DNA of 64,000 nucleotides. Source: Omnitrophica WOR_2 bacterium GWF2_43_52 (GTDB taxonomy: Bacteria; Omnitrophota; Gorgyraeia; Gygaellales; UBA12090). Below the pieces are notes generated by a model. That model saw only the letters and a list, made by a program, of their open reading frames with translations. It was not told the DNA's origin and searched no databases. Below, piece after piece: positions 1 through 37,719 of the stretch. A program made the position numbers and the translations under genes. Numbering within the stretch: position 1 is the stretch's first letter; the number at the start of each line of letters is the position of its first letter. The stretch lies in NCBI GenBank assembly GCA_001805445.1, contig MHGF01000022.1, positions 74,613 through 138,612 of the forward strand, in the 5' to 3' direction.

Positions 1-784
1 AATTATCATCCTGAAGGACGACCACTTTAACCCCGTATTGTTTATGCAGCATCTCCAATTCTTCAATAACCCTTTTTGGGCTTTTGGCGCGCCATTTAAG
101 AAAATCACTCGGGGAGCGCGGGTCATACTGATCCCACTCATAGCAAAAGGTACACGCTGAAGGGCAGCCGCGGGATGAGACCATATCCACAAAGGGCTTC
201 CAATGGGTATGCCCCACATATTTATCCATCGGGAATAAATCATAAGCCGGAAGAGGTAAAGAATCCAAATCCTGCTGTAAGGCTTTATAAGGGCCCATCA
301 CAATTTCCCCATTTATTCTGGAAGTAACTCCTCCCACATTTTTTAAATCTTTCTTTTTTTCTATCGCTTCTAATAAATCATAAAAACACTCTTCCTCACC
401 CATTACCACAAAGTCCGCCGCGGGATTAGCCGCAAGGCTTTCAGTCGGCATTGCCGAATACCACAGGCCGCCGAAGATTATTTTTACCTTAGGGAGCGCC
501 TGCTTTATTTTCTTGGCTGCCTCGTTAAAATACCAGACTACCGCGTAGCCGCCGTAGGAATGAAGCTGTTCGCCCAAAACCACGATATCCGGATTTTTCT
601 CTTTCACTTGGGCGGTCATTTCATCCATAGACAATTCAAAAGCTTTACAATCCAATACCGCAACATCCTTATACCCCTTTTCCCTGACATACGCCGCCCA
701 ATGGGTATACAACTGATTCGGTGCCACATGTTTTCCATGCGTTGCCCAAGCGCCCACTTTAGGCATGACAAATAAAATTTTCAT
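1..784 (-). CDS. B12-binding radical SAM protein (N-terminal ~260 aa; 3' end runs off window start)
   Basis: Reverse-strand translation begins MKILFVMPKVGAWATHGK... (B12-binding-like N-domain) and continues to SSRGCPSACTFC, the CxxxCxxC radical-SAM cluster motif. A GGAGGA RBS lies upstream of the ATG at 784. Not in the ORF track because it is truncated by the window edge. Confidence 0.7.
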   Translation of the reverse strand, partial: MKILFVMPKVGAWATHGKHVAPNQLYTHWAAYVREKGYKDVAVLDCKAFELSMDEMTAQVKEKNPDIVVLGEQLHSYGGYAVVWYFNEAAKKIKQALPKVKIIFGGLWYSAMPTESLAANPAADFVVMGEEECFYDLLEAIEKKKDLKNVGGVTSRINGEIVMGPYKALQQDLDSLPLPAYDLFPMDKYVGHTHWKPFVDMVSSRGCPSACTFCYEWDQYDPRSPSDFLKWRAKSPKRVIEELEMLHKQYGVKVVVLQDDN

Positions 785-858
785 TCTTTATCCTCCGTCT
801 TTAGGGACGGTTCTTTATTGGTAGTAATTCTATAGAAAGAACCGTCCCTGAATAGTTG

Positions 859-2250
859 TTAAAATGATTGAAAAACAATGTCTCCTTTTGCCTTGCTTAA
901 ACCGTGCGCCTCTTCATCAATCTCAACGCCAGCGAAATCATCCTGTTTATCAGGGCCAAAACTATACACAATCCAGCCATTCTCCTTTTTCACATATTTT
1001 AATGGCTTAAAATTGTCAAATGGATCTTCAGGGATTTTCTCAAGATAGGCAGGGACTAATTCTTGTAAATTCTCCAGCATCTTACCTTTTTCTATTTCGT
1101 AGCATCTTACGGCGACAGCCGCAATCAAAAGGTTTAGCCTGCTCACTGAGTTATAATAATAAACTATCTGTCGGTTATAACCAGGCATTGGCATTTGCAC
1201 AAAAAGCCTAGAAATCGTCTTGGCAATGGTTGAGGAAAACATCCATTGAAATAATTTATTCTTAAGAAGATACGGCTGTGTAAAAACGAACCACGAGAAT
1301 GGTGTAAACTTTAATACGCCTGATTGCTCATACCGTTTATTGAAGGCATTATAATTATTTTCTCGAAAAGCTGCGACGAGATAGGGATACCATTCATTAT
1401 CTGATTTATTATATTCTTTATAAATTGCCTGCCGAACCTTTTTGATAAGTTTTATTGGTTTGTCTTTAGCAGATTCTTTTCCCTTGTCAGGAGTAACAGC
1501 TTTTCCCGAGGCCTCTTGTTCCCTTTCGTTTTGTCCAAAATATTCCGAAAGAAAATCCGGAGAATCAAGCAGTCTTATTATAGTATTTCTATGAGCCGTT
1601 CTTTCTTCTTCAAAAGCGTTTTCCAGGGTAATTCTCAATTTATCGCTTTTTAGAGAAAGGAGCATACTAAGTATCGATTGGAAATCTTCGATATTGACGT
1701 TTTCATTTTGTTCAAGGTACCTGTCTATGGCAGAATATAATGGCGTTTCCGTAACCCAAACCGTTGCTTTTGTGAGCAGGATAAATGCTTTTTGTTGCTC
1801 TAAATGTCTGACATAACGCGTAAGCGCAAGATAATTTTCTAAAGCCAAATCGGGCTTATGTTCTTCTTCATACAATTTAGCTTCTAACATCATTAACTTT
1901 GCTATACGCAATTCTTTTAAATGGGAAGGCCCCATTGCAATTAAATCTTTTACCGGCGGCTTACCAAAAGTAAAGTCACAATAGGTGATCTCAGTTGCCT
2001 TCTTAAATCCCTCTATCGCTTCTTTGTTTTGGGCGAGAATAGCTTTTAATCCCTCATTACCCTCTTTCCAGCCATCCTTGATTACCTTATTTATCTCATC
2101 ATGAGGAAAAGATGAAATATCGGAAAATAAAGATGACGCTTGTTGATACATCGTAGCGGCATTTTCTTCAGCATAGCTTGAAGCAATAAATAATATGCTA
2201 GATAGAAAGATAAAAAAACAAGTACATCTTAACCTATTTTTGCTTGGCAT
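859..2250 (-). CDS. secreted hypothetical protein (463 aa) with N-terminal signal peptide
   Basis: ORF track. N-terminus MPSKNRLRCTCFFIFLSSILFIASSYAEE has a hydrophobic core plus an A-x-A-like cleavage region. No recognisable catalytic motif. Sits 3 bp downstream of the KS-like gene. Confidence 0.5.
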   Translation of the reverse strand: MPSKNRLRCTCFFIFLSSILFIASSYAEENAATMYQQASSLFSDISSFPHDEINKVIKDGWKEGNEGLKAILAQNKEAIEGFKKATEITYCDFTFGKPPVKDLIAMGPSHLKELRIAKLMMLEAKLYEEEHKPDLALENYLALTRYVRHLEQQKAFILLTKATVWVTETPLYSAIDRYLEQNENVNIEDFQSILSMLLSLKSDKLRITLENAFEEERTAHRNTIIRLLDSPDFLSEYFGQNEREQEASGKAVTPDKGKESAKDKPIKLIKKVRQAIYKEYNKSDNEWYPYLVAAFRENNYNAFNKRYEQSGVLKFTPFSWFVFTQPYLLKNKLFQWMFSSTIAKTISRLFVQMPMPGYNRQIVYYYNSVSRLNLLIAAVAVRCYEIEKGKMLENLQELVPAYLEKIPEDPFDNFKPLKYVKKENGWIVYSFGPDKQDDFAGVEIDEEAHGLSKAKGDIVFQSF

Positions 2251-2253
2251 TTA

Positions 2254-3483
2254 CTATTCTTTCTCCACTACCAGCGCTGAGTTTATTCCTCCTCTGCCGC
2301 GGGAAATCACCAGAGCCTTATTTATCTTATGCTCTTTGGCTTCTTTTTTGATATAGTTTAGGCCGTTATTTGCCGGCTCATCCAAGTTTATGGTTGGGGG
2401 AACTAAATTATGCTCCATGCTCAGAATTGTGGTAATCATATCTACCGCCCCTGATGCGCCCAACAAATTACCGAACATTGACTTAGGGCAGCTGGTGGGA
2501 AGAGTCTTTGCCTTAGCGCCAAAGACCTGCTTTATAGCACTCACTTCGCCCAAATCCCAATCATCGCAAGCCATACCGTCTAAACTAATATAATCTATTT
2601 TTTCCGGAGAAACCTTGGCATCATCCAAAGCCATTTGAATTGCCCGGGCTAATTCCTTACCGTCAGTCGCCGGATTAATCCTGTCTTTTGCGTCGCAGGT
2701 TGTGCCATATCCGGAAATCACCGCCTGGATATTTGCCTTACGAGCCTTGGCGCGTTCAATATTTTCTAGCGTTACAATCCCCGCGCCTTCGCCAATCACA
2801 CAACCGTCGCGTTTTTTGTCAAATGGCCGATACGCGCTTTGGGGATTATCATTATTTTTGGATAAACAGCCGTAGGTATTACAACACAAAAGGGCGTAGG
2901 GAGTAACCGGCGCTTCCATTCCTCCGGCAAGAATCAAATTCAACTTATCCTTACCCAAAGTCTTACTGGCATAACCTAAAGCCATCAAAGAGCTGGCCCG
3001 GTCAGAAACTACGGTTTTACTAAAACCCTTGATACCGTAATAAATGGAAACCTGGCCTTGGGGAGCCGCGGGAAACCAAGCGCTGGCCATATACGGTGAA
3101 ACCCCTGAGCGTCCTTCCAAATATAAATCCCGCAATTCCGTTTCCGCGTAAAGCCAGCCGCCAATGGCATTGCCTAAAAATATCCCCACCAAATTGGGGT
3201 CTTCTTTTTGAATGTCAAGGCCGGCATCCTGCAGGCTCATTTCCGAGGCAATCAATGCCATATGCGAAAAGGCATCCATCTTTTTTAAGAGGCGCTCGGA
3301 GACATGCGTATAAGCATCCAAATCATCAATCTGCCCGGCAATGTGCGACGAATAATCCTTGGCGTCAAAACGGGTGATAGGCTTAATGAAACTTCTTCCT
3401 GCCTTAATATTCGCCCAGAACTGGCGCTTGCCGATGCCGCTGGGGGCAACAATCCCAATTCCTGTAACTGCTATTTTACGCAT
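2254..3483 (-). CDS. beta-ketoacyl synthase family protein lacking the Cys-His-His catalytic triad (chain-length-factor-like KS partner)
   Basis: Thiolase-fold KAS I/II-like over its full length (GIGIVAPSG...PFDKKRDGCVIGEGAG...). Aligned to the adjacent KAS, the active-site TGCTAG is replaced by SDRASS (Cys to Arg), ISAHGSS by ISLDGMA (His to Asp) and IGHPLAA by FGNLLGA (His to Asn). An RBS, GGAGAGGG, lies upstream. Confidence 0.75.
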   Translation of the reverse strand: MRKIAVTGIGIVAPSGIGKRQFWANIKAGRSFIKPITRFDAKDYSSHIAGQIDDLDAYTHVSERLLKKMDAFSHMALIASEMSLQDAGLDIQKEDPNLVGIFLGNAIGGWLYAETELRDLYLEGRSGVSPYMASAWFPAAPQGQVSIYYGIKGFSKTVVSDRASSLMALGYASKTLGKDKLNLILAGGMEAPVTPYALLCCNTYGCLSKNNDNPQSAYRPFDKKRDGCVIGEGAGIVTLENIERAKARKANIQAVISGYGTTCDAKDRINPATDGKELARAIQMALDDAKVSPEKIDYISLDGMACDDWDLGEVSAIKQVFGAKAKTLPTSCPKSMFGNLLGASGAVDMITTILSMEHNLVPPTINLDEPANNGLNYIKKEAKEHKINKALVISRGRGGINSALVVEKE

Positions 3484-3571
3484 TCCCTCTCCATTAAAAA
3501 ATAATGCTTCGTGTGCCGTGTACCGCTCACCGTGTACCGTTACGGTGAACGGTACACGGTAAACGCAACAA
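3484..3571 (-). terminator. strong hairpin (ccgtgtaccg...cggtacacgg) followed on the minus strand by TTATTTTTT, between the two KS genes; terminator or attenuator-like
   Basis: Inverted repeat CCGTGTACCGTT/AACGGTACACGG seen directly. The minus-strand reading gives a stem-loop followed by a T-rich tract. Confidence 0.4.
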
Positions 3572-4831
3572 TCATTCCATTCTTTTTAACACTAGTGATG
3601 AATGTATCCCGGAAAAACCGCTTGAGGTTTTGATAATCATATTTACCTTTTTCTGCCGGGCAGTATTAGGGATATAATCCAGGTCGCATAATGGATCTTT
3701 TTCTTCCTGATTTATCGTAGGAGGTAAAATGTTCTTCTGAAAAATCATGGCGCAGACACTTAGCTCAACGGCATTGGCTGCCGCCAAAGGATGCCCAATC
3801 ATAGACTTAAGCGAACTCATCGGCAGTTTATACGCATAATCCCCAAAGACCATTTTGTAAGCGCTGGTTTCAAAAATATCGTTCATCCGGGTGGATGAGC
3901 CGTGGGCGCTGATATAATCTATATCCCGCGGCTTTACCGCGGCATCCTTAAGGGCTAAATTGATACAACTTGCCATTGCCGTGCCGTCTGCGGGAAGGTC
4001 AGTCATATGAAAGGCGTTGCAACTGGTGCCAAATCCGATGACTTCACAATAAATATGGGCGTTTCGTTTAAGCGCATGATTTAATTCCTCTAAAATTAAA
4101 ATCCCCGCGCCTTCGGAAAGCACAAACCCATCGCGTTTTTTATCAAACGGCCGCGATGCCTTTTCCGGAAAATCGTTACGCACGGACAATACATTCACCA
4201 CATCAAACGCCCCAAAGGTAATCGGCGTAAGGGGCGCTTCGGCAGCTCCGGCTATCATAATATCCGCTTCTCCATCCTGAATCGTCTCTAAGCAAAAACC
4301 TAAAGAATCCGTGCCGGCGGTGCATCCGGTTGAAATGGTATTACAAAGGCCATTCAACCCATATCGGGCGGAAAGCTCAATTGACGGAGTATTAAACATC
4401 GCGGCATCATAGAGGTCAGGGCGGACTAATTTTGGATTGATGGGATTTTTGCCGTTATCGGTAACTAAAGAAAACTCCTCCTCCATATATTTTGTCCCGC
4501 AGATAGCATTGGCTAATGACACACCTACTCTTTCTGTATCTTCTTTACTAAAATCCAAACCGCTATCTTTAATAGCCATATCCCCTGCCACTACCCCAAA
4601 CTGCACATATCTATCCATGCGCACCGCCTCATCATGGGTAAGCCCAAGTTTAAACGGGTCAAAATCCCTCACCTCAGCGGCAATCCGGGTATTAAACACC
4701 GAAACATCAAAATCATCCACCAGCCTCACCGCAGATTTTCCGTTAATCATGGCATTATAGACATTATCTTTACCAATGCCGTTAGGCGAAATCACGCCGA
4801 TTCCTGTTATCACTACGCGTCTTTTTTGCAT
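3572..4831 (-). CDS. 3-oxoacyl-ACP synthase II-like ketosynthase (FabF family), catalytically intact
   Basis: 419 aa. Motifs VITGIGVISPNG, active-site Cys in NTISTGCTAGTDS, His in ISAHGSS and IGHPLAA, and PFDKKRDGFVLSEGAG. Confidence 0.85.
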   Translation of the reverse strand: MQKRRVVITGIGVISPNGIGKDNVYNAMINGKSAVRLVDDFDVSVFNTRIAAEVRDFDPFKLGLTHDEAVRMDRYVQFGVVAGDMAIKDSGLDFSKEDTERVGVSLANAICGTKYMEEEFSLVTDNGKNPINPKLVRPDLYDAAMFNTPSIELSARYGLNGLCNTISTGCTAGTDSLGFCLETIQDGEADIMIAGAAEAPLTPITFGAFDVVNVLSVRNDFPEKASRPFDKKRDGFVLSEGAGILILEELNHALKRNAHIYCEVIGFGTSCNAFHMTDLPADGTAMASCINLALKDAAVKPRDIDYISAHGSSTRMNDIFETSAYKMVFGDYAYKLPMSSLKSMIGHPLAAANAVELSVCAMIFQKNILPPTINQEEKDPLCDLDYIPNTARQKKVNMIIKTSSGFSGIHSSLVLKRME

Positions 4832-4846
4832 AATTTATTTTTTCTC

Positions 4847-5485
4847 CTAACAACCACAGGGCGGTGGGACTTTATTTTTAGAAACCACATCTTTATTTTC
4901 CGCTTCGCCTGTCCGCGTCACTTTAAATACTATATGGCCGCCGTCTGGACAAGTTACCGTATCTATAGAATCGGGGTCCTTCATAAAGAAAAACTTAGCC
5001 CCGAAATTAAGGGCAAATAATGCCGGAAACATCGTATGGAATGCCGCGCCGCAAAAATTAGGAATAGTCTCTAAACCTTTGGTTTCCCATTTCTGGCCTA
5101 AAACATACTTATAGGCGCAATGGCCCTCAGATTTAACGACTTCAACAGCCATCTTTTTTGGTTTTGGGCCTTTCCAATTTTGGTCTTTAGGTATAAACTC
5201 AACCTTACCATCCTTATCCAAAACCTCGGCCTTAAATTCTAACTTTCCTCCGTCAGGACAAGTGGTCAATAACGAGCGCTGGTTTTCCATAAAAGGAAAC
5301 CGCGCCCCAAAGCTTAAGGCATAGATTACAGGAAAAAGCACCTGGGCTAGGCCTAAACAAAAGTGCTCCGGAGGATGGGTAAAATCTTCTAAAATTAATA
5401 CATCCCCCAATTTATAGTTATGATAACAGTGCCCCCCGACCTTATTGACCGTAAGTTTTAATTTTGGAAACGGCGTCTCTACCAT
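4847..5485 (-). CDS. tandem-repeat Cys/His-rich protein (2 x ~100-aa 'HC..YKLG...TCPDGG' domains)
   Basis: 212 aa. Two internal repeats each carry a GHC.[HY].YKLG motif, an F/LFPxxxALxFGA[RK]F motif and a TCPDGG motif, and the protein ends in CGC. May be related to small TIGR04076-like proteins, recalled from memory and not verified. Confidence 0.55.
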   Translation of the reverse strand: MVETPFPKLKLTVNKVGGHCYHNYKLGDVLILEDFTHPPEHFCLGLAQVLFPVIYALSFGARFPFMENQRSLLTTCPDGGKLEFKAEVLDKDGKVEFIPKDQNWKGPKPKKMAVEVVKSEGHCAYKYVLGQKWETKGLETIPNFCGAAFHTMFPALFALNFGAKFFFMKDPDSIDTVTCPDGGHIVFKVTRTGEAENKDVVSKNKVPPPCGC

Positions 5486-5506
5486 CTATAAATCCTCCCT
5501 GAGAAA

Positions 5507-5533
5507 CCAATTCAACCTACGAGGTTGAATTGG
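5507..5533. repeat. hairpin ccaattcaacct-acg-aggttgaattgg (12-bp stem) with core CAACCTACGAGGTTG; same core as the palindrome at 18766-18816
   Basis: Direct inspection. Lies between the stop of the oxidoreductase gene and the start of the CPDGG gene. Confidence 0.6.
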
Positions 5534-6532
5534 TTATAATCCTTTTGTTTTTTCTATGAGCTCTTTTACATCTAAAAAGCGCTTACTTTTCTCTACCGTA
5601 TGCACAAGCTCAACTAATTTTCCATTGAGTTTGGCGCAGATACTGTGCTCTTTTGCCAAAGCTACAAACGCGCCATTAATATAATCAATTTCCGAAAGGC
5701 GATTTCTTTTAATGCTCTGAAGTATTGAGCCATACAAAGGCTCTTTGCTTAAATTCATCATAATACCGGAAAATATCTTCGCCGACTCATCCAAGGGCAA
5801 TGCCGCTAATTTTTCCAGGCGTTCCAAAGGGAAATCCGGCAAAGAAACAAGCTTTATTCCTACCTTTGTAATAATAGCCAGCCCCTCTTGCCAAATACGC
5901 ATACTCAGCTTGCAAAGCTCTGAATTGCTAAAAGTTTCTTGCATGCTTTTACCAATAAGCGCGGGCAAACAATTATTGGCATTGACAAAAACCTTAAGCC
6001 ACTTCATTCCTGCAATATCATCAGTTGTAATAACAGGAAAAATTTTATTTAAAAAAACGGCAATTTCTTCTGCCTTTGTATCATTCTTCATAAACGGCCT
6101 GCCGATAATCCATTTCCCCTCAAAATTATGCACGATTTTATTTAAGCCTAAATAGGTTGAGCCAAACATCACGATGCTTGAGATAATCTTTTCTTCAGAA
6201 AAATATTTGGCTAAAATTTTATCCGCCTGTATGCCGTTTTGAGTGGTTAAAATTATCGTATTCTTTAAATACGCTAAATTTTCTTTTATAACCTTTTCAA
6301 TATCCTGTGTCTTTACGGTAAGAATGGCAAGATCAACTTTTTTCCCTAATTTTGGGACAATATCAATTTTTATTTTCAAGTCGCCGCGCGTGCCGGAGAT
6401 TTCGAAGCCGTTTTTGCTGATAGCCTCAACTGCCTCCTTGCGGCCGACTAAAAAAACATCCTCCCCTCTATGCTTAAGGTAGCCCGCAACCAAACCACCA
6501 ATTGCCCCTGGGCCTATGACTGCTATTTTCAT
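5534..6532 (-). CDS. 2-dehydropantoate 2-reductase family (ApbA/PanE-like) NAD(P)-dependent oxidoreductase
   Basis: 332 aa. N-terminal Rossmann motif MKIAVIGPGAIGG and overall ApbA/PanE-family architecture. The KS/CLF context suggests a ketoreductase role, which is inference. Confidence 0.7.
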   Translation of the reverse strand: MKIAVIGPGAIGGLVAGYLKHRGEDVFLVGRKEAVEAISKNGFEISGTRGDLKIKIDIVPKLGKKVDLAILTVKTQDIEKVIKENLAYLKNTIILTTQNGIQADKILAKYFSEEKIISSIVMFGSTYLGLNKIVHNFEGKWIIGRPFMKNDTKAEEIAVFLNKIFPVITTDDIAGMKWLKVFVNANNCLPALIGKSMQETFSNSELCKLSMRIWQEGLAIITKVGIKLVSLPDFPLERLEKLAALPLDESAKIFSGIMMNLSKEPLYGSILQSIKRNRLSEIDYINGAFVALAKEHSICAKLNGKLVELVHTVEKSKRFLDVKELIEKTKGL

Positions 6533-6552
6533 AGTTCGCTTCGCTCACTCAC

Positions 6553-6650
6553 GAATTACCACGAATTTTTATCGAATTTACACAAATTAAATCTATATTT
6601 TATTCGTGGCCTTTCGGCTTCTTATTCGTGTGAATTCGTGTTTCTCGGAA
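6553..6650. repeat. MITE-like intergenic element with multiple ACACGAATT/AATTCGTG(T) half-sites in both orientations
   Basis: The sequence cacgaattaccacgaattt...ttattcgtgg...ttattcgtgtgaattcgtgttt belongs to the same family as elements at 17493, 22961, 29925, 36700, 37722, 41383 and 50218. Confidence 0.6.
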
Positions 6651-6897
6651 AGCCATACTTCCTATAATCAAACCCTACATCTTCCAAAAGGCGAATCATC
6701 AGGCTATAAAAAGGTTTAGGTACATCGCTAAAAAGCGCGGCAATAACATCTTGTTCTTCAACCTGGCGTACGGCGCGCGCTTTTGCATTTTCCTGAGCCT
6801 TAAGCGTTACCGCTTCTTCGGCAATACGCCGGTGAAACACCGGCATCTTAGCAACCATTAACTTAAATTTTTCTTGTGTCTTTATATTCCACTCCAT
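6622..6897 (-). CDS. small PCP_red-like domain protein (similar to the BchB/ChlB C-terminal 'protochlorophyllide reductase 57 kD' domain)
   Basis: 91 aa. The pattern W..K.QEKF...VAKMPVFHRRIAEEAV...A..AV..V...DVIAALF resembles the stand-alone PCP_red domain. Pattern match from memory. Confidence 0.4.
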   Translation of the reverse strand: MEWNIKTQEKFKLMVAKMPVFHRRIAEEAVTLKAQENAKARAVRQVEEQDVIAALFSDVPKPFYSLMIRLLEDVGFDYRKYGFPRNTNSHE

Positions 6898-6918
6898 AAT
6901 TTGCTCACTCCGCTCGCA

Positions 6919-6975
6919 AATAGTCGATAGCCTATAGTCGATTGTCCGCAGTAAGATCTATAGCTTATCGATTAT
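6919..6975. repeat. ATAGTCGATAG-type repeat element (aatagtcgatagcctatagtcgattg...ctatagcttatcgatta)
   Basis: Shares the ATAGTCGATAG/CTATAG motif with 25998-26032 and with an in-frame segment of mnmE at 45667-45696. Confidence 0.55.
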
Positions 6976-8516
6976 TAACTGTCGACCGCTTTCAGCTTTT
7001 CCTTTTGTATCTTCCCACTTGGGGTCTTGGGTAAGGTATCTCTGATTTCTACATTATGGGGAACCTTAAAATGCGCTAAATGCTCCCGGCAAAAAGAGCG
7101 GATATCTTCGGTGGTTGCCTCAACACCTTGCTTAAAGACCACAAACGCTTTGACGATTTCACCCCGCAGTTTATCCGGTATACCCACTACCGCCGCTTCT
7201 TGCACTGACGGGTGTTTTAAAAGCACGTTTTCCACTTCAAAAGAGTAAACAATCTCACCGGAAACTTTAATCATATCCTTTTTACGGCCTACTATATAAA
7301 GGAAACCTTCCTCATCAAATCTTCCTAAATCACCAGTGTGAAACCAGCCGTTTTTAATTACCTCTGAGGTAGTTTCTGGGTCCTTATAGTAGCCTTCCAT
7401 CACCACCCAGCCTTTAATAATAATCTCCCCTACCTCACCTTTCGGTAATTCCGTATCATCGTCAGCGGCTATTTTTACCTCAACCCATGGCGCTGGCTTT
7501 CCTATACTTTCAATTTTTTTTGAACCAAGAGGAATGACGGTGTTCGGCGGGCAGGTCTCAGTAAGCCCCCAGCCGTTTAAAAGATGCGCCTTAGGACAAT
7601 ACTGCTGGAATCGCCTCAAGGAATGAGGATCGCTCGGCGCCCCAAACACCACCACCCAGCGTAAGCTGGATAAATCAAAACTCTCAAACTCCTTTAAGTT
7701 TAAAATGGCATAATACATTGAAGGCACTAAATGAAAACAGGTGACTTTATATTTCTGGATATTCCTTAAGAATTCTAAAGGTTGAAAACGCTCCATCAAT
7801 ACAAGAGTAATTCCGTAGCAAATACAATTCTGGATATAAACAAGCCCGCCTGAATGGGACAAAGGAAGCGCGGAAAGTTTTACATCCTTATCCGTTAAAT
7901 CCACAAAATACTCCATAGCCTTTGGCGAACCGTCAAGATGCTTATAATTAAGCGAAATTCCTTTGGGCGAGCCGGTTGTGCCGGAAGTATACATAATAAG
8001 CGCGGGGTCTGTATCTTCTACTTTTATATCGGTAGGAAACGGCCTTGCAGAGGCTACCATATCCGTAAAAGAGCGAAAGCCGCTCTTCTGCGGCTCTAAA
8101 ACAATTACATGGGCTAAGCTGGAGGCTCGGTTTTTCAGGCTTTCAAGTGAAAGCCGCTCTTTTTCCTTAGCAATTAAAGCCTTGGCTTCACAATGGCTTA
8201 AACAGCTCGCCAGTTCATCCTCGGTAAGCATGTAATCCAGAGGAACAATGGTAGCGCCTATAGAAAATAGGGCCAAATAGCTATAGATATATTCAGGGCA
8301 ATTAGGTAAGTAAATGGCAACCTTGTCTGATTTCTTTATGCCTAAGCTAAGCAGACCATTGGCGAGCTTAAAGACATTATCATAGAGCTCTAAGAAGCTA
8401 ATCGGCTTGTCTCTTCCCGATAAATCGGGATCCCGACTCTTTTGTCGGGAAAAGATTATGGCCGGCTTGGAATGGAATTTCTTGGTAGTATCAATTAAGA
8501 CTTGGGCGACATTCAT
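6975..8516 (-). CDS. AMP-dependent synthetase/ligase (acyl-CoA or acyl-ACP ligase)
   Basis: 513 aa. Adenylation P-loop YTSGTTGSPKG, plus GWGLTE and a lysine near the C-terminus (PKTPSGKIQK). Confidence 0.85.
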   Translation of the reverse strand: MNVAQVLIDTTKKFHSKPAIIFSRQKSRDPDLSGRDKPISFLELYDNVFKLANGLLSLGIKKSDKVAIYLPNCPEYIYSYLALFSIGATIVPLDYMLTEDELASCLSHCEAKALIAKEKERLSLESLKNRASSLAHVIVLEPQKSGFRSFTDMVASARPFPTDIKVEDTDPALIMYTSGTTGSPKGISLNYKHLDGSPKAMEYFVDLTDKDVKLSALPLSHSGGLVYIQNCICYGITLVLMERFQPLEFLRNIQKYKVTCFHLVPSMYYAILNLKEFESFDLSSLRWVVVFGAPSDPHSLRRFQQYCPKAHLLNGWGLTETCPPNTVIPLGSKKIESIGKPAPWVEVKIAADDDTELPKGEVGEIIIKGWVVMEGYYKDPETTSEVIKNGWFHTGDLGRFDEEGFLYIVGRKKDMIKVSGEIVYSFEVENVLLKHPSVQEAAVVGIPDKLRGEIVKAFVVFKQGVEATTEDIRSFCREHLAHFKVPHNVEIRDTLPKTPSGKIQKEKLKAVDS

Positions 8517-8798
8517 TTGATGTACTCACTAACAATGGGATCCCACAGTTAAAGGCGGATAATCGCTACGAAGCCCTCCCGTCGTTTGCATGTTCAGGGC
8601 GAAGCAGGATAGTAAAATTTTACTATTTAACTTTTCTTAATTATAAGAGGCATAAAACCTATTGTCAATAATTATTTTGCGAAGGTTTCTATGATGAGGT
8701 AATTGCTGGAAAATGGATCTGGATTCCCCGGTTAAGCCGAAGAATAACAGAATACCCAAATTTACTGTTACCGGTTACAATTAAGGCGGGATTATGAT

Positions 8799-9092
8799 CT
8801 ACGGATGTGGGGTTATGGCAGCGACACTTATTTGATTCTTTCGCGGCCCATAATACCAAAATATACGATACGCGCCAGGAGTAGAAGCTTGAGCATATGC
8901 CTCAAAAACTTTTTCTCCATGCGGCCCTTTAAGGCTTGTGAATTCATGCGTATTTAAACTCGGATGGCGAAGGTTGTGCTGCATCAGGGCTAGAGTTTTT
9001 TTGACTGCCTTCTCAATCTTCCTGCGAGAACGATCGTTTTCAAGCGCGGTTAACTGTTCTTGCGCCGTATCCGTAAGAACAATTTCATTCAT
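8799..9092 (-). CDS. type II toxin, RelE/ParE superfamily
   Basis: 97 aa. The C-terminus ...YRIFWYYGPRKNQISVAAITPHP is typical of RelE/ParE-fold toxins. The 8-nt overlap with the upstream antitoxin gene is typical of TA operons. Confidence 0.6.
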   Translation of the reverse strand: MNEIVLTDTAQEQLTALENDRSRRKIEKAVKKTLALMQHNLRHPSLNTHEFTSLKGPHGEKVFEAYAQASTPGAYRIFWYYGPRKNQISVAAITPHP

Positions 9093-9369
9093 TATCTTGC
9101 AAATGTTTAGACATATCCGGTAATTTATGCTTGGGTTTTTCGCTTAAACCACGCTTAACGCTGGATAAGGCCGCGGCATTCTTATAAAGCCACGCTTCAT
9201 GTTCTGGAACAGCCACCATAGGCTCAAGGACAATCTTGCCGGCGATTATTTCAGCATTATAAAGAGTAACCTTTAATTTTCCTGCCTTTATAATTTTACC
9301 TAATGGAATACGTTTGCGTTCATCTAACGACAATAACATGGGGAACTCCTCCTTTTTCGCTCGCTCCAT
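9085..9369 (-). CDS. AbrB/MazE/SpoVT-family antitoxin
   Basis: 94 aa. The looped-hinge-helix-like segment IPLGKIIKAGKLKVTLYNAEIIAGKIVLEP. The gene sits immediately upstream of the toxin and overlaps it. Confidence 0.55.
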   Translation of the reverse strand: MERAKKEEFPMLLSLDERKRIPLGKIIKAGKLKVTLYNAEIIAGKIVLEPMVAVPEHEAWLYKNAAALSSVKRGLSEKPKHKLPDMSKHLQDNE

Positions 9370-9427: not shown

Positions 9428-12400
9428 TTATACTTTATCCGATTCCAGGGCAATAAGCAATCCCTTTAGGGAGGGTTCGGTGGCAGGCAATTTTTCATCC
9501 TCTTCCTCGCGCCGAAGGATATCGGCAAGCATAGCGCGAACCTGGTCTATTCTCTCTTCAGAGAGCGGACTGGCCACAGCTGCTGCCGTGTATTCGCCAA
9601 TGCGCTGGACAGACGGCCGGATCCCGGCGTTAAAGACAGCTTGAATTTGAGACCATTCTTTATCCAAATCCGACTTAGGGGTTATAGACAGCGGCCTAGA
9701 GACTAAAGACTGGAGACTTTGAATTTGCTGGGTTTGGATAGGTAGGGCGGCAAAATCGATGCCACCCTTGTCATCGCTGACTGATGAGGAGCTTGTTGAA
9801 TCCAAACTAATCTTATATACACCACCTTCATCAGAATAAATAATCACGGTTGATTCATTAATTACTTCTATCTTTTCTGGAATAATTGACAAACATGGCC
9901 AAACATTCAGGCTATTACTCGCAAAACGAATTGGCTTACCAACATAGGCAGAGGTCATAGGATCCCATAATTCTCCTTTGAGCTTTGTATTCGGCCTTAC
10001 TCCTTTTAATTCTTCTTTCTTCCAAAAAGTATTATTTTCGTCACTTCCACCGACTAATTCTAACGTGACTTTTGCATCCTCTTTAAATTTCTCGAAAACT
10101 TCTTCCTTAGATACGTTTCCTTTCTCTGGTTCCAACAAATAATTATATTGCTTACCAAAAAACAGCACGTTTCCTAAATGCTTAGCCACCTCGGCGAACC
10201 TGCCTAAAGAAGGCTTACAGGCACGTGCAGAATTAAAAAGATATTCTGCCCCTGCCACTGCTACTGCCTCTTTGGGTGTAGTTTTCCAATATTGCGTATA
10301 TCTTTTCAAGGCAACATTTGCATCTTGATATTTAGAATCGTTCTTCAATTCTTCATAACTATCTTCGCCCACGTAACACACCAGCCTTCCGCCATCTTCT
10401 CGATACACCCAATCTCCGTAATTAAAATCGCGAATCTCAGTATAATTCCCTTTTAACTCTCTTTTCAGCTCATCTAATGTCTTCAACTTGCCATTATGAA
10501 ACGCGCCGTAAAACCCAGCTTTGCGGGTAATCTCAATCCACGCATCAAAAGACACTATCGGATTGCTATTCTTATCGCTTGAAAGTGATATTTTATGCAT
10601 AATCTCATGCCAAAATGTTTTGGCCAAGTCTATGAAATTATTCTCATTCCGGACACCATTGATAAATATCGTATGGACTGTTTTTTGGCCAACCCACCCC
10701 CCAGCATTAACATCCAGCTCCGCAAAATCTATTTTTATGGGTATTTTTATCTTTCCCAGCAAATCTTTCGGAAACGATCCTAATATCTTTCTTACGTCTC
10801 CAAAACGTGATGGTGCCACATAAGAGAGAAATTCTATGTTTAATCCTTCCCTTATATCTCGCACTAACAAGAGATAACCCTCAAGGTCTTTTATGGTTTG
10901 CGAGTTATCAATTTTTCTCATACTGCCTAATTCAGACAATATCCTGCTTAACTTCTGAGAATCAATCCGACCGGACGTCTCAAATAGACCCTGTTCATTC
11001 TCTATATATAAATGCACCAGTTCTACCACATATTCATTAAATTCCGACCCTTTACTTTTAAGTATTTTCCCTAACAACTCTTTAGGGGACATCTTCTTTA
11101 TAGCCACTGCTTCCAAAAAATAAGTTTCCTTTATATGTTTAAGGAAAGACACATAATCTCTTAGACCAACCAACGCTACCAGCCTTTTCCTTTCCTTTCT
11201 TATTTCAGCTTCCGGCAATTCTGTATTTATCTGAACAATTACGTTATTTAACACATCCAGATTTATCTCATCGCTTTCCTTATTATCCTTCTGCTTAAGA
11301 TACTTAGCGATGTATTCTTTTATACCGTCATTCAGCCTTCCGGCACCTATATTCTTTTTTATAATCCATTTCACAAAATCTTCAAGAGATAACTCCCTTA
11401 ATTTTTCTGGTGAAGCTGCATATTTATCAAAATCGTGCTTTTCAAAACCTGCATTTCCCACCGCCGAGCTGGCGGAGGAACCATCTATAGGCAAATTAAT
11501 AATTTGTTTCCTTTCTACAGCTGAACTTACAGATAATAATTTACCTATTCCCCTATTATCTCTAACATTAGACAAATTAATCGCGCTTGTTTCATTAGGC
11601 ATAGTAAATGTTTCTTCTGTCATTACGTTAGTTAATGTAGCTGGCTTATAGTTATACTCAGCCATTACAAATTCTTCTCCGTCATGCCAATCTATAAAAA
11701 TCTTAGTCCCTTCATAACCCTCAGGCATATCACCAGTAAAACCAATCCAGAGATCTCTTTTTGTTTTTAGATTCTGGGCATAAAGAACATTCTCACCAGG
11801 GTCATATAGATATTTAAAATTCTCTTTATCCTTATCTTCACACACTTTCAGCTTGAAGGTGGCATGGGTTATAGGGTTAGTAACTTCTATTGTTCCATCG
11901 GCTCGCAATTCACTAAGTAGCCCCTGCCGCATTCTTAGTAAATGCTGCTCTCGCTCCTTCACTGTTTTTTCTTCTCCACCGGTGTCCTCAGAATAAAACG
12001 AGCAACCTCGAAAAATAGTGCGAAAAGGAGTTATATCTATGCCAGCCTCTATAAATTCTTTTTTCAACTCTGCTATAAACTGTGTGAGAAGAAAAGGAGA
12101 ATTTCTATACCTTGAAAAATATTCCTGCCGATGGTCTTTTCGAGCCGCGTCTGTAGAAGGATAGATAATGTCCCACAACAACTTCGTCTGAGGCTTAGTC
12201 GAATGATCGTTATCCTTAATTTCAAGGCTGTCATGAATTATTCTAAACAAAAATCTTTGTAATTCTGAAACCTTCAAGTCACTTGAAAGTAATCGGTCGC
12301 TATTAATGTCTTCTATCACTTTCTTAATATCACTCATTGTAATTGTGTTACCCCATTCCAGCTTTACGTCTGCGGAATCCTCTACCGCCGAGCTGGCGGG

Positions 12401-15400
12401 GGCAGGAGCACCTGTAGATTCATCTTGAAGCGGCACACCCCATAAATTAAGCACCTTTTCTATATCTCGAATATATTCTTCACCAATCTCTTTTTTAGGA
12501 TCGAGTTTAATCCGATCCTTTATTTTCTCTATTTGATCCCTCCAAGCCTTTATACGTGTTTCTAACTCGCCTATTTCAGAAGCAAATTTAAGTTCTTCTT
12601 CTAATATTCTCGGATGGGCATGTTGAAAAAAAAAGTTAAAGTCAGAATCAATAGCCCCTCTTTCTACAAATTTTTGCTCAAGTAATTCATGTAAAAATAC
12701 AGATTTTGTAGGAGAAATGCCTAATTCCTGACAAAACGCATGATAAGCCGCGGGAGAATAATATATGCCCTCCTTCTGGACAGACGGATGAAACATCCAT
12801 ACAATGGATGGTATGGATTCTGGGGCCATATATCTTGTAGCTTTTTCAATTTCATCCCATACTTTGCCTGCGCCACCCGCTAATTCCCTAACTCTTTTGA
12901 TCAATTCCGCAGATGCCCTATCCAACATAAACATCGTAATTCCTATTTTTACCTTAAAAACTCCAATTTCTTCTATAAATTTTTCAAGAGTCATTTTCCT
13001 AATTTTATCCTTGGAACCTATTTTGTTTTCAAGATATTCTGCGGTATCCTTCACCGCAGAATCTATTACATTGGAATCGGGTTTAGCCTTAGGCTGATTA
13101 TGAGCGCTGGCCATCTCCATTTGACTCACTACCTCTGCGATATTACGACTCTTTAAAGCACCCCAGATGTTTTTAGCGTCCAAATTATCTTTACTACCGT
13201 TTGCCAAAGTTACCAGAGACAGCTCCTTAGGCTCTGGATTCCGTCCAAAAAAGCTCATCAAAGAAGAAGAAGCTACTTTTTCTTTTTCACTTATTTCTTC
13301 CACCGCCGAGCTAGGCACATTATTATATGATTTTTCGCTATTGATACTATTTGTTCGATTTAAACCAACCCTTCTTACCATATCGTCTTCGGTAGGTAAC
13401 CTTTTTCCATGAACCCAAAGGGTAAGTCCTGGGTTCTTCTCTGTTATCTCCTTTAGTGCCGACTGATAATCCGGAACAAACATTTTGGCTGTCCAGCCTT
13501 CATAACCATATCCGCCAAAATAATCCAGATTAGTTACTTCTACTTTTTCTGAACTCTTTTTTACAAATATCAATTTTTTAGAATACTCGGCAAAAACTTT
13601 CTCTGCCTGATCCCTGAGAAATTCAGGGACTAAAATATAGTCTATATCTTCAAAACTGACTTCCTGAACACTCCAAGCTAAAGCACCACTTTTACCCGTA
13701 AGCAAGCCTATATCTTTCTTCTTAATAGTGTCAAATTGAGAGACAAAGAGAACAGAATGCATAACCCGCTCCTCCATCATTTCAGATAGAAGGCCATATC
13801 CATGAAGCAAACGTAAATCTTCCCCGTATCTTTCTGTAACAACTGGTAATACCGCATTGCCGTCGCGTCCATTATATAATGCGTCATAGGAAGTATTCAT
13901 AAATCCATTTCTTATTCCTTCTTTAGCCAATTCCTCTACATCTTCCAAAGATAATCCGGGGAGTCTATAGCTCTTATATATTTCCCCTGTTTGCTTAATG
14001 ATTACATTCCATGTCGTGCCATCATCTCCTTTCTCTAATGACAATGTAGGATTGATTATGACCCCATAAACTATAGGTGCTGGCGTTCGCGAGGATAGCG
14101 ACGTATCAACACGCAAACCTCCTCTTTTAATTTGCTCAAGTTGATAAACAATCTCGTCTCCGACCCGTTTCGAAATAAAAAATCCTAATTGCCTGCCTAA
14201 TGCCTTTGGAGATGACAACATACTCAAATCTACAGATAGAAGATAACTCAAAGATTGACCGCTGTGCCCGGTAACAGGATTGAATCTATCCATAATTATT
14301 CTATTTACCCTATATTCCCAATTATTAGCTGGAGATGTAAATTGAGAAACCGCCTTATCAATAAATATTGCCAGATTTTCTTTTCCTGCCCACTGAGCAT
14401 AATCTTTAAAAAGCTCTTCTAAATAGCTTAATCCTGCCACATCATTATTTTCTGTCCGCATAAATCTAACAACATCCTCTCCAGAGGTGCCAATACCAGC
14501 TGCCTTTCCTATGATTGTTGCTACACCATATTTGTTCAACGCTTCTGCAAATATTTTATAAGACTGCTCAATAATTGAAGATGAAGCTCTATCAGTTGCA
14601 AAGGACTCTATTAAAAATTTAGTTCTCGGAGGACTAATTGTCTTAGCAGGAATCTTAGAGATTGCGCTGCTAACTTGTTCCGTTCCAAACATCATCCCCC
14701 CGCTCATATACTTGCGGATACTCTGGCCCATAGGAGTATATATCGGCTCAGTGAGGTTGTATTCGCCATCTTGGAATGATTTCTGGTATTGCTGGAAGTA
14801 ATCTTGCTTGTCATACAGTTCTTTAGAAACCAAATTAGTCAAAGCCCCGGAATCTATGAGCTTGAAGTAATCATTGGCTTTTTCTGTCCTCTGTTCCCTG
14901 TTCTCTGTCATCTGCGAGCGAAAGCGAGCTTTAAACCACTGCGCCAAGATGAGCGAATAATACACCTGCCGAAGAGAAGCGTATCTCTTTGAGGTATTCA
15001 CCTGATAGGTAAGCTTAGGGATTACCAATTCTCTGATAAGCTGGGTAGAATATTCATTGAGCTCCTTTAGCCTTGGATCTTTGAAACTATAATTTATTAT
15101 CGTCCCTCGTCCTTCATCCTTCATCCCTCGTAAATAATCCTCCTCCAGCATCACTTTTAGGGTTGCTTTGTATATGTACGCATTATCAGGGGCTTCTCTG
15201 ATGATTATCTCATTGGGCACTATCCAGGGGCGGGTTAAGGTGGGTATGGTAATATTCTCCGTTCCAAATAATTCTTCTGCTTTCTTATAGAGTTTATCCC
15301 AGTAAACTTTTCCTTCAGGGTCTTGGGGTGAAGTAAAGTTTGCGGTGTCCTTCTTTAGCTGGACATCTGCTTCTAAGAATATCCTGCCGATATCAGTCAT

Positions 15401-17037: not shown

Positions 17038-17038
17038 C

Positions 17039-17482: not shown

Positions 17483-17492
17483 TTAGTGCTGA

Positions 17493-17572
17493 AAAACTAA
17501 TTTCCACACAAATTAACACGAATAGATTTGTGGGAATTCGATAAAAATTCGTGGGAATTCGTGTTATCAAAT
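17493..17572. repeat. MITE-like ACACGAATT-family element between nuoC and nuoD
   Basis: The sequence aacacgaatagatttgtgggaattcgataaaaattcgtgggaattcgtgtt has half-sites in both orientations. Confidence 0.6.
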
Positions 17573-17605
17573 ACCTTTTTTAGTGGAAACTATTTAAAAC
17601 ACTCT

Positions 17606-36179: not shown

Positions 36180-36695
36180 TTAGGGCCTTACGATGAGGCG
36201 GTTTAAAAAGGCAATTTCCGCTTCAAGTAATTCCTGATTATGCGCGACTATTACGGATAAATTTGGCGGGGCGCCTTTAGAAAGCGTGGCTTTAAGTTTT
36301 TCTAAGCCTTTTTTGAGGCGGGTGAGCAATTTCAGCCTCACTTTCAGGTAGCGCTCTCTTTGTTCTGGAGGGATATAGTTAAGAAAATAGAGCGATACAT
36401 CAATGCTGAAATACGGCCGCTCAATAGTGAGTAAATTTTTAAGCAAAAGCTTCTTAAATGCTTCCTTGCCCTTCGGAGTAATCTTATAGGTATAGCGGAT
36501 AGGCCTCTTGCCTTCTTTATCAACAGCCTGGGTAACCAAGCCGCCTTTTAACATCTTTTTAAGAGGATAATAAATAGAGTCGGTTTTTATACCGGTAAAG
36601 GTAGCGGTAATTTCCTGAAGGAGTTTTTTTAACTGGTAGCCGTGTTTTGGCCCGTCTTGGAGAAGGCCTAGGAAGAATAATTCCTGCTCTTTCAT
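36180..36695 (-). CDS. PadR family transcriptional regulator
   Basis: 171 aa. PadR signature HGYQL....L......GIKTDSIYYPLKKMLKGGLV plus a C-terminal extension. Confidence 0.75.
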   Translation of the reverse strand: MKEQELFFLGLLQDGPKHGYQLKKLLQEITATFTGIKTDSIYYPLKKMLKGGLVTQAVDKEGKRPIRYTYKITPKGKEAFKKLLLKNLLTIERPYFSIDVSLYFLNYIPPEQRERYLKVRLKLLTRLKKGLEKLKATLSKGAPPNLSVIVAHNQELLEAEIAFLNRLIVRP

Positions 36696-36699
36696 TTCT

Positions 36700-36790
36700 T
36701 AAACGCGAATTTACGCTGATTTTTTCTTGCCTGCCGTATAGGCAAGCGCGAATATCCGCGAATTTTTATTCGCGTCTATTCGAGTTTTAG
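36700..36790. repeat. CGCGAAT-variant half-site array (aaacgcgaatttacgc...gcgcgaatatccgcgaatttttattcgcg)
   Basis: Read directly. Same family as the other MITE-like elements. Confidence 0.5.
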
Positions 36791-37719
36791 GCGAAGACGC
36801 CGATTTTTCTGAATTTCTGATAACGTTGGGCGAGTAGTATATCAACAGGAATTTGTTTTAACTCATCAAGGTGTTTCTTGATTGTCTTTTTAAGGCTTTG
36901 GGCGGTTTTCTGCGCGTCGCGATGCGCGCCTCCCTGAGGCTCATTCACAATATCATCAATAATCCCTAACTCTAAGAGTTCCTGAGCGGTTAATTTTAAG
37001 GCGCTTGCCGCCTCGTTGGCCTTGGCAGAATCTTTCCAGAGAATAGCCGCGCAGCCTTCGGGAGAAATTACTGAATAATAAGCATTTTCCATCACGCATA
37101 CCCTGTCTCCTATGCCAATACCAAGCGCGCCTCCTGAGCCGCCTTCCCCAATAACTACCACGACTATCGGCACTCCTATCAGGACCATCTCGCGCAGGTT
37201 TAAGGCAATAGCCTGGGCCTGGCCCCTTTCTTCCGCGCCTATCCCCGGGTATGCCCCGGGAGTATCAATCAAGGTAACTATAGGAACATTGAATTTTTGG
37301 GCAAGCTGCATAAGGCGAAGCGCTTTACGGTAGCCTTCGGGATGGGCGCAGCCGAAATTACGCTTAAGGTTTTCTTTGGTATCCCTGCCTTTTTGATGGC
37401 CCAGCACCAAAATCTTCTGGCCATCGAGTTTAGCCAGCCCGGAAACCATTGCTTTATCGTCGCTAAAAAGCCTGTCACCGTGCAATTCGCAAAAATCAGT
37501 TAGCATTAAGTCGATATAATCAAGGGTATACGGGCGCCGGGGATGGCGGGCAATCTTGACGCGCTGCCAAGCTGTAAGGTTTTGGTAAATCTCATTCTTC
37601 TTTTTTTCCAATTCCTGCTCAAGGCGCTTGATTACCTCTTTATCTTTGGTAATGTGCCGTAATTCCTCAATCTTGCGCTCTAATTCCAGTATTGGCCGCT
37701 CGAAATCTAATCCAATCAT
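36787..37719 (-). CDS. accA: acetyl-CoA carboxylase carboxyltransferase subunit alpha
   Basis: 310 aa, colinear with E. coli AccA. Motifs LDFE.PI.ELE.KI, ARHP.RPYTLDY, GRDTKE...RNFG and GEGGSGGALGIG. Confidence 0.9.
   Translation of the reverse strand: MIGLDFERPILELERKIEELRHITKDKEVIKRLEQELEKKKNEIYQNLTAWQRVKIARHPRRPYTLDYIDLMLTDFCELHGDRLFSDDKAMVSGLAKLDGQKILVLGHQKGRDTKENLKRNFGCAHPEGYRKALRLMQLAQKFNVPIVTLIDTPGAYPGIGAEERGQAQAIALNLREMVLIGVPIVVVVIGEGGSGGALGIGIGDRVCVMENAYYSVISPEGCAAILWKDSAKANEAASALKLTAQELLELGIIDDIVNEPQGGAHRDAQKTAQSLKKTIKKHLDELKQIPVDILLAQRYQKFRKIGVFA

Follow-up and report, generated by a model that had tools for sequence, protein, structure and literature searches.

A conserved operon of probable aromatic type II polyketide synthase kind, with an embedded B12-binding radical SAM gene, in Candidatus Omnitrophota

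Gene content and conservation of the cluster

The stretch analysed here, called the window throughout, comprises 64,000 nucleotides of contig MHGF01000022.1 (assembly GCA_001805445.1) from Omnitrophica WOR_2 bacterium GWF2_43_52, and the genes at its start belong to a conserved operon that we consider a probable aromatic type II polyketide synthase (PKS). A preliminary description of the window had recognised eight co-oriented and tightly spaced genes there, including a pair of ketosynthase (KS) genes, and all eight were found on the minus strand between positions 2 and 8516, separated by gaps of 3 to 89 bp. The family searches proposed at that stage (PF00109/PF02801, PF02310, PF04055, PF02558 and PF00501) all gave matches, and the eight genes were assigned as follows.

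2..784, minus strand: B12-binding radical S-adenosylmethionine (SAM) protein, N-terminal 261 aa of 486 aa (PF02310 and PF04055, CxxxCxxC), the remainder lying past the window start
859..2250, minus strand: 463-aa protein with a hydrophobic N-terminus, signal peptide predicted by eye
2254..3483, minus strand: KS2, triad-less KS-fold protein (PF00109/PF02801), with Arg/Asp/Asn at the Cys/His/His positions
3572..4831, minus strand: KS1, active ketosynthase, KS-alpha-like (PF00109/PF02801), with the Cys170-His310-His347 triad intact
4847..5485, minus strand: tandem TIGR04076 protein (NCBIfam, 88.7 bits against a cut-off of 33, in two stretches, with TCPDGG twice)
5534..6532, minus strand: ApbA/PanE-family NAD(P)H-dependent reductase (PF02558 and PF08546; TIGR00745, 168.9 bits)
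6622..6897, minus strand: 91-aa PCP_red/DUF2621-like protein, with whose gene the conserved operon begins; weak DUF2621 match when scanned singly
6975..8516, minus strand: AMP-forming acyl ligase (PF00501 and PF13193), a lineage accessory gene

The 463-aa protein had no Pfam or NCBIfam match. When 45 orthologues of the 91-aa protein were included in a family scan, DUF2621 was matched by 44 of them and PCP_red by 24, which bears out its earlier description as PCP_red-like.

To read the genes past position 1, the window was extended on the public contig DMEX01000009.1 (GCA_003451255.1). The rest of the 486-aa radical SAM gene (full length at 12700-14160 in L001, the extended locus of this genome) was followed immediately by the acyl carrier protein (ACP) gene that the preliminary description had expected beyond the window start, encoding a 100-aa PP-binding protein with a DS motif. 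Then came genes for a tyrosine transposase of the repetitive extragenic palindrome (REP) type, a PF04199 cyclase, a cupin and a nucleotidyltransferase/HepT toxin-antitoxin pair, and after these a Polyketide_cyc2 (SRPBCC) protein, a major facilitator superfamily (MFS) transporter, a short-chain dehydrogenase (SDR), a 143-aa protein (u143), an alpha/beta hydrolase and Amidohydro_2. The REP-associated tyrosine transposase homologue and the nucleotidyltransferase/HepT pair are insertions in the operon of this genome only (L001 14498-16989, just past the window start); the transposase was seen in 1 of 41 related loci and the toxin-antitoxin pair in none of the 41.

A scan of species-representative genomes recovered 183 stretches encoding relatives of KS2, the best 80 of which were analysed as loci. 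All of them came from Omnitrophota-type metagenome-assembled genomes (MAGs), with 76-94% identity to KS2. Every protein of the contig was mapped onto the 80 loci and all their open reading frames (ORFs) were clustered, the counts being taken over the loci long enough for each position. A fixed, co-oriented order was found: PCP_red-like protein, ApbA reductase, tandem TIGR04076 protein, KS1, KS2, B12 radical SAM protein, ACP, PF04199 cyclase, TcmN-type cyclase, SDR, u143 and Amidohydro_2. The presence of each gene was as follows.

91-aa PCP_red-like protein: 59/59 loci
ApbA reductase: 59/59 loci
Tandem TIGR04076 protein: 59/59 loci
KS1: 59/59 loci
KS2: all 80 loci (the query)
B12 radical SAM protein, between KS2 and ACP: 55/56 loci
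ACP: 56/56 loci
PF04199 cyclase: 56/56 loci
Cupin: 7/41 loci
SRPBCC cyclase: 41/41 loci
MFS transporter: 31/41 loci
SDR: 41/41 loci
u143: 39/41 loci
Amidohydro_2: 36/36 loci
PNP/UDP-family phosphorylase: 34/36 loci
MtnA-like isomerase: 30/36 loci

A class II aldolase and an aldehyde dehydrogenase come after the MtnA-like isomerase. No Pfam family was found for u143 in a scan of 45 orthologues. The one locus in which the radical SAM gene was missing between KS2 and ACP is L080, and in L084 it was likewise not found; in both, the ACP gene directly follows KS2, as it does in a locus from a Deltaproteobacteria-labelled MAG, in which the radical SAM gene lies upstream.

Besides the transposase and the toxin-antitoxin pair, three genes of this genome do not belong to the conserved set: the acyl ligase, present in 5/59 loci, the 463-aa signal-peptide protein (0/56, being found on identical contigs only) and the alpha/beta hydrolase (2/36). 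The acyl ligase and the signal-peptide protein are lineage-specific additions. The unit had been drawn with the wrong boundaries, for it took in these two, and at least seven conserved genes lie past the window start; the window holds the upstream half of the operon. As for the earlier proviso that the genes might turn out to be scattered in related genomes, the same co-oriented operon was present in the 80 loci.

Sequence conservation was compared with that of two neighbouring genes, AccA (acetyl-CoA carboxylase) and ComM, as median pairwise identity.

Radical SAM protein: 87%
SDR: 84.5%
TIGR04076 protein: 83%
KS1: 82%
KS2: 80%
AccA (neighbour): 78%
ComM (neighbour): 65%

The cluster is among the most conserved loci of these genomes and not a sporadic speciality, and the operon is vertically conserved in Candidatus Omnitrophota.

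Ketosynthase pair, carrier protein and cyclases

The pairing of an active KS with a triad-less one, described earlier from this genome, was checked across the family. Cys170/His310/His347 of KS1 were kept in 75 of 75 genomes, and in the same number KS2, encoded directly downstream, carried Arg/Asp/Asn in place of Cys/His/His. Among solved structures, the best matches of KS1 were the actinorhodin KS (1TQY_A, 381.6 bits) and AntD, the ketosynthase of the Photorhabdus anthraquinone pathway (6SMO_B, 376.3 bits); about forty FabF entries scored 350.7 bits or less, below both, although the margin is modest. An exhaustive search with KS2 returned, as its closest relatives beyond Omnitrophota, other triad-less KS-family proteins: one from the Deltaproteobacteria-labelled MAG (58%, also with Arg/Asp/Asn), those of Clostridium beijerinckii and C. 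puniceum (46%), and those of Archangium, Ktedonobacter racemifer (a KS-family protein) and Paenibacillus (39-40%). For Clostridium, Paenibacillus and Archangium, the loci retrieved with these relatives proved to be clusters of the type II PKS kind. Neighbour-joining analysis placed KS1 together with the Deltaproteobacteria-labelled KS and the PKS KS of Clostridium in 200 of 200 bootstraps, and the triad-less clade, KS2 included, parted from the Cys-His-His clade in 144-167 of 200. By these sequence comparisons, KS2 falls among the non-actinobacterial chain-length factors (CLFs).

The genes past the window start completed this picture. The SRPBCC protein could be aligned along its entire length with the aromatase/cyclases TcmN, WhiE and ZhuI (E about 1e-25), and a 264-aa protein was assigned to the PF04199 cyclases of the OxyN/DpsY type, with the sequence HVGTHLD at the HxGTHxD motif. 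The operon therefore combines an intact-triad KS and an adjacent Cys-less partner with a discrete ACP, a TcmN-type cyclase and a PF04199 second-ring cyclase, the active KS being nearer to KS-alpha than to FabF. Because of the scores of KS1, the TcmN-type and PF04199 cyclases, the relatives of KS2 and the KS tree, we assign the operon with good confidence to the aromatic type II PKSs, in the ancestral form known from outside the actinomycetes and homologous to the locus of the clostrubin producers. With several oxygen-independent accessory enzymes beside the minimal PKS and its two cyclases, it would most likely make its aromatic polyketide in the absence of oxygen. The first of the three options given in the preliminary description (type II PKS, aryl-polyene or specialised lipid) thus stands, in its aromatic form; the other two fared poorly, as described below.

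Several observations weigh against this assignment. KS1 reached 460.0 bits on the FabF model TIGR03150, just under the equivalog cut-off of 493.75, and KS2 scored higher against FabFs (301 bits) than against the actinorhodin CLF (251 bits). The Gln of classical actinobacterial CLFs is absent from KS2, the residue being Arg in all 75 genomes. As Arg is also present at the Cys position in many of the partner KSs of Clostridium, Paenibacillus, Archangium and Ktedonobacter, the Gln signature may define an actinobacterial subgroup only. The tree is of the neighbour-joining kind only, and many of its taxa are cluster representatives. In addition, the SDR is a generic short-chain dehydrogenase, not near known polyketide ketoreductases, and the operon includes neither a phosphopantetheinyl transferase nor a malonyl transferase. 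Finally, an identity of 80-87% is unusual for a secondary-metabolite cluster, and the loci are the 80 best matches to KS2, so that the share of the phylum with the operon is not derivable from the counts.

Some of these features would fit housekeeping fatty-acid elongation, in which KS1 would be FabF and KS2 its degenerate paralogue, working with the ACP and a FabG-like SDR amid unrelated neighbours. KS1 scores above the cut-off of the broader PRK07314 subfamily, the best NCBIfam match of the SDR is a 3-ketoacyl-ACP reductase model, the cluster is more conserved than AccA, and the 64-kb window showed no further fab genes. However, neither KS1 nor KS2 (387.9 bits) reached the score of a housekeeping FabF on TIGR03150, KS2 is triad-less in every genome checked, and KS1 groups with the PKS KSs and not with the Cys-His-His FabF-like representatives. 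FabD, FabH, FabZ and FabI were absent in and beside the operon in the 80 loci. An order of at least 12 genes, cyclases included, stays the same from genome to genome and was found again in another phylum. We consider a housekeeping role very improbable, in agreement with the earlier view that the genes lie outside core FabF metabolism.

Comparison with known systems and proposed route

The closest characterised counterpart of the operon is the clostrubin-type locus. The type II PKS locus of C. beijerinckii and C. puniceum encodes a KS (45% identity), a CLF that lacks the triad and has Arg in place of the Cys (45%), a PF04199 cyclase (47%), an SRPBCC protein (41%), Amidohydro_2 (35%), a TIGR04076 domain and an ACP in a similar order; six proteins are common to the two loci, and both hosts are anaerobes. 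In contrast, the Clostridium locus is without the B12 radical SAM protein, ApbA reductase, PCP_red-like protein, SDR and u143, and has extras of its own (ACPS, CMD, DUF362, DUF169, alpha/beta hydrolases and ketosynthase III). From the species names, rather than from a mapped accession, we infer that it is the published clostrubin (clr) cluster with ClrA/ClrB (PMC7693217).

The locus of the Deltaproteobacteria-labelled MAG has almost all of the Omnitrophota genes, with the radical SAM protein (54%), ApbA reductase (52%), tandem TIGR04076 protein (53%), KS (66%), CLF (58%), ACP, both cyclases, MFS transporter, Amidohydro_2, phosphorylase, isomerase and aldolase; a DAO/amino-oxidase gene is found there only. 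The KS-CLF-ACP layout with TcmN- and OxyN-type cyclases has been described as that of ancestral, non-actinomycete type II PKSs (PMC7693217), and it is shared by the dendrubin (den), AQ-256 (ant), pyxidicycline (pcy), Ktedonobacter and Paenibacillus systems, ant also having a CoA-ligase-type gene and an alpha/beta hydrolase nearby, as in this genome. Unlike these, the Omnitrophota operon places the radical SAM gene between CLF and ACP, has no phosphopantetheinyl transferase in the cluster and carries another tailoring set; nor is it sporadic, being retained in numerous species of one phylum. The actinorhodin minimal PKS (1TQY) follows the same logic of KS/CLF, ACP and cyclases, and the operon differs from it in having cyclases of the monodomain TcmN type and the OxyN type, and Arg instead of Gln in KS2. 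A TIGR04076 gene of a single domain is part of the type II PKS locus of Paenibacillus, together with a U32-family gene and two HemN-type radical SAM genes, the last of which suggest oxygen-independent tailoring there too. In a small search, the C-terminal part of the U32-peptidase-family protein of P. rhizoplanae (L091 18734-20173) resembled the 91-aa PCP_red-like protein (28% over 75 aa, E 2e-6).

The tandem Cys-rich 'CPDGG' protein of the preliminary description is a member of TIGR04076, with both stretches accounted for and a score well over the family cut-off. C20, C43, C76, C123, C145 and C179 are invariant, and each repeat has three invariant Cys, a His and the CPDGG motif, a residue set that suggests a metal or Fe-S site. 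Its sequence matched no solved structure, and an AlphaFold2 model (pLDDT 84) found no convincing solved-structure counterpart. The Omnitrophota protein is a free tandem, whereas in Clostridium a single TIGR04076 domain is fused to ACP: a 175-aa TIGR04076::ACP protein is encoded directly after the CLF in C. beijerinckii (L089 11260-11787) and C. puniceum (L090 4794-5321), with a TIGR04076 domain of 42.7 bits (cut-off 33) and an ACP part bearing the DS motif. Such fusions made up just three protein clusters in a collection of 5.8 billion proteins, and public sources name the Clostridium protein 'TIGR04076 family protein' or 'acyl carrier protein'. Because of this fusion, the Omnitrophota protein would be expected, by analogy, to work on or with ACP. 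The family was mentioned twice in the literature searched, both times in unrelated contexts. TIGR04076 thus recurs among the parts of such PKSs, a link for which the searchable literature gave no statement, and the natural fusion ties a family without assigned function to ACP-dependent polyketide synthesis.

BchE, the anaerobic Mg-protoporphyrin monomethyl ester oxidative cyclase, is the oxygen-independent counterpart of the oxygenase-type cyclase in chlorophyll biosynthesis. The full-length radical SAM protein scored 213.5 bits on the BchE model TIGR02026 (cut-off 481.35; profile positions 2-416 of 497), 146 bits on HpnJ and 82.1 bits on the ladderane-type model TIGR04072 (rSAM_ladder_B12, cut-off 360). 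Judged by these scores, it resembles BchE and HpnJ, is a member of neither family and does not belong to the ladderane-type one. With BchE and HpnJ it shares the B12-binding and radical SAM architecture and an oxygen-independent chemistry on unactivated carbon; unlike theirs, its context is a PKS operon instead of tetrapyrrole or hopanoid synthesis, and its score is less than half of the BchE cut-off.

This bears on the proposal that the locus is a ladderane-like or specialised-lipid fatty acid synthase module, with the KS pair starting and elongating an acyl chain that the radical SAM enzyme would cyclise or branch. A model of this kind exists in the Kuenenia/anammox Cluster I (amxFabF2/amxFabFmut/amxACP/amxFabZ/PDH/B12 radical SAM), which has been linked to ladderane lipids (bioRxiv 10.64898/2026.05.19.726425) and likewise has an active KS, a triad-less KS (forming a KS/CLF-like heterodimer there), a dedicated ACP and a B12 radical SAM protein. 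Furthermore, Omnitrophota MAGs with antiSMASH 'ladderane' clusters are on record (PMC9902471), and high conservation next to AccA would suit a membrane-lipid role. Against this, the score on the ladderane model is far below its cut-off, both polyketide cyclase families are kept in every sufficiently long locus, six proteins are common with the Clostridium aromatic PKS locus, and the triad substitutions are Val or Thr in Cluster I, Arg here. The FabZ-type dehydratase and phytoene-desaturase homologue of Cluster I were not among the genes and families of the Omnitrophota loci, and no dehydratase or enoyl reductase was present at the locus or in any of them. The heterodimer 9S5H gave 296 bits with KS1 and 198 with KS2, lower than the actinorhodin KS or FabF. 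9S5H is probably the anammox KS pair. A lipid module is in our opinion improbable, and the modified (branched or cyclised) acyl chain predicted earlier is unlikely as the product. What antiSMASH calls 'ladderane' in phyla of this kind may be aromatic PKS loci under a wrong label.

A further possibility was an aryl-polyene or another non-aromatic type II PKS-like system of the ishigamide or cispentacin type, making a polyene or a small carbocycle. These systems also use KS/CLF-like heterodimers together with adenylating enzymes; the ishigamide KS 6KXD was among the solved-structure matches of KS1 (230 bits) and the cispentacin AmcF model was matched at 144-156 bits. However, the AmcF scores are less than half of the 325-bit cut-off, an adenylating enzyme is present in just 5 of 59 loci, and all members of the family have the TcmN-type and PF04199 cyclases. 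Moreover, hot-dog dehydratases, an ApeQ-type ketoreductase, a LolA/MMPL export set and acyl-/glycosyltransferases were missing from the gene lists of the Omnitrophota loci. Such a system appears quite improbable.

Returning to the aromatic type II PKS, the enzymes for methylation and oxidation of anthraquinones in anaerobes are absent from the dendrubin cluster and not known (PMC7693217). Because of this gap and of its likeness to BchE, the radical SAM enzyme may carry out an oxygen-independent C-methylation, or may oxidise or cyclise at an unactivated carbon, for example the methylene of an anthrone. The locus thus offers candidate enzymes for the O2-free methylation and oxidation of aromatic polyketides.

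In most Omnitrophota the PKS operon is followed by the PNP/UDP-family phosphorylase, the MtnA-like isomerase, the class II aldolase (with an SCP2-like tail) and the aldehyde dehydrogenase. Examples among the related loci are L045 (17093-21220) and L087 (18447-21242), the latter with aldehyde:ferredoxin oxidoreductases in place of the aldehyde dehydrogenase, as described for the Deltaproteobacteria-labelled locus. A known 'DHAP (dihydroxyacetone phosphate) shunt' disposes of 5'-deoxyadenosine, and by enzyme-family match the phosphorylase/isomerase/aldolase/aldehyde-oxidising set looks like such a shunt. The cluster and the phosphorylase/isomerase/aldolase set are inherited together across phyla.

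The following route can be proposed from these assignments. Malonyl units supplied by acetyl-CoA carboxylase, whose AccA gene is an ancestral neighbour, would be loaded on ACP, with the malonyl transferase and the phosphopantetheinyl transferase encoded outside the operon. The KS1/KS2 heterodimer would extend a poly-beta-keto chain on ACP, the KS2 side of the tunnel setting its length; the SDR, the ApbA reductase or both could reduce selected carbonyls, and the TcmN-type and PF04199 cyclases would fold and aromatise the chain. Amidohydro_2 may then strip the terminal carboxyl, a terminal decarboxylation having been proposed for dendrubins and pyxidicyclines (PMC7693217). The BchE/HpnJ-like radical SAM enzyme would perform oxygen-independent radical tailoring of the aromatic intermediate, and the co-inherited phosphorylase/isomerase/aldolase/aldehyde-oxidising set would clear the by-product 5'-deoxyadenosine.

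Type II PKSs are regarded as sporadic antibiotic factories, mostly of actinomycetes. The one described here has become fixed in many species of an uncultured phylum, mostly anaerobic and with ultra-small cells, and its constraint exceeds that of acetyl-CoA carboxylase. This points to a physiological role for an aromatic polyketide, and the very high conservation argues for a core function instead of a strain-variable antibiotic. Clostrubins let an anaerobe grow under oxic conditions (PMC8222398), and by analogy with clostrubin in C. puniceum the product could be a redox-active or oxygen-protective polyphenol. A more specific scheme can be drawn, in which the operon would make a core redox-active aromatic polyketide that the cells need (a quinone- or anthrone-like electron carrier or an oxygen protectant) by an entirely O2-free route, the radical SAM enzyme would replace O2-dependent anthrone oxygenases or SAM methyltransferases, TIGR04076 would be an ACP-partner subunit common to ancestral type II PKSs, and the salvage set would recycle 5'-deoxyadenosine. 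There would be room for such a carrier because the window has a complex I-type operon without NuoEFG and known quinone pathways are patchy in the phylum (PMC10066038). We put this scheme forward as speculation and think it unlikely in its full extent.

As regards earlier work, KS-CLF pairs had been catalogued in 14 phyla, Candidatus Omnitrophica among them, without further analysis (PMC10132072), and the architecture is of a known kind. No statements on polyketides, lipids or quinones concerning this locus were found in the Omnitrophota genome papers searched. As far as could be searched, the following points are new: the delimitation of a 12-13-gene operon, fixed and highly conserved in Omnitrophota; its homology with a clostrubin-type locus; the embedded BchE-like B12 radical SAM protein and ApbA reductase; the recognition of TIGR04076 as PKS-associated and ACP-linked; and the co-inherited set resembling 5'-deoxyadenosine salvage.

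Neighbouring genes and minor features

Apart from the eight genes, three further features of the window were located.

36192..37719, minus strand: PadR-family regulator (36192-36695) and AccA (36796-37719), found by tblastn of family representatives on the window
8640..8668, minus strand (read 8668-8640): promoter-like site ahead of the ligase gene, 12/12 against the sigma-70 consensus TTGACA-17-TATAAT, a consensus match only
804..848, no strand assigned: perfect 13-bp inverted repeat GGGACGGTTCTTT with a 19-nt spacer, lying in the gap that separates the radical SAM gene from the inserted 463-aa gene

The AccA orthologues scored 500 bits on the AccA model (cut-off 357), and the PadR match was obtained on orthologues as well. 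In the gene order of the related loci, the PadR and AccA block usually adjoins the operon just upstream. It is part of a larger group at 30229-41369 that includes a resistance-nodulation-division (RND) efflux set (outer membrane protein, membrane fusion protein and AcrB-type), MarR, PadR, AccA, LysM/L,D-transpeptidase, a PAP2-like gene and a divergent ComM. This group abuts the PKS operon in other Omnitrophota; here, the two are about 21.7 kb apart, with a 1184-aa methyltransferase-like protein, the nuo operon, a giant ORF, a toxin-antitoxin-like pair and the acyl ligase interposed.

The complex I-type operon lies at 16169-25998 on the plus strand, with NuoD-, NuoH-, NuoL-, NuoM- and NuoN-type proteins identified; genes of NuoE/F/G size were not apparent in the run. 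It implies some membrane electron carrier in the organism. Its position near the cluster was not accepted as evidence, since the stretch of roughly 21.7 kb that separates the cluster from the RND genes is specific to this genome.

Whether the inverted repeat at 804-848 belongs to a dispersed REP family linked with the REP-type transposase nearby was also considered, and this was dropped, as the window has just two perfect arms. An Rfam scan of the whole window gave zero matches. At 8799-9369 on the minus strand, a pair of short genes that overlap (94 and 97 aa), with no family assigned, is toxin-antitoxin-like, and a promoter-like site (11/12) lies at 9402-9374. An ORF of 2146 aa at 9428-15868 on the minus strand, directly upstream of the cluster, contained zero Pfam domains; orphan proteins of great length have been reported as a trait of Omnitrophota. 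Finally, a lysine-2,3-aminomutase-type radical SAM gene was found at 51950-55518 on the minus strand beside two D-Ala-D-Ala-ligase-like ATP-grasp genes, which together may constitute a small beta-amino-acid or peptide module.

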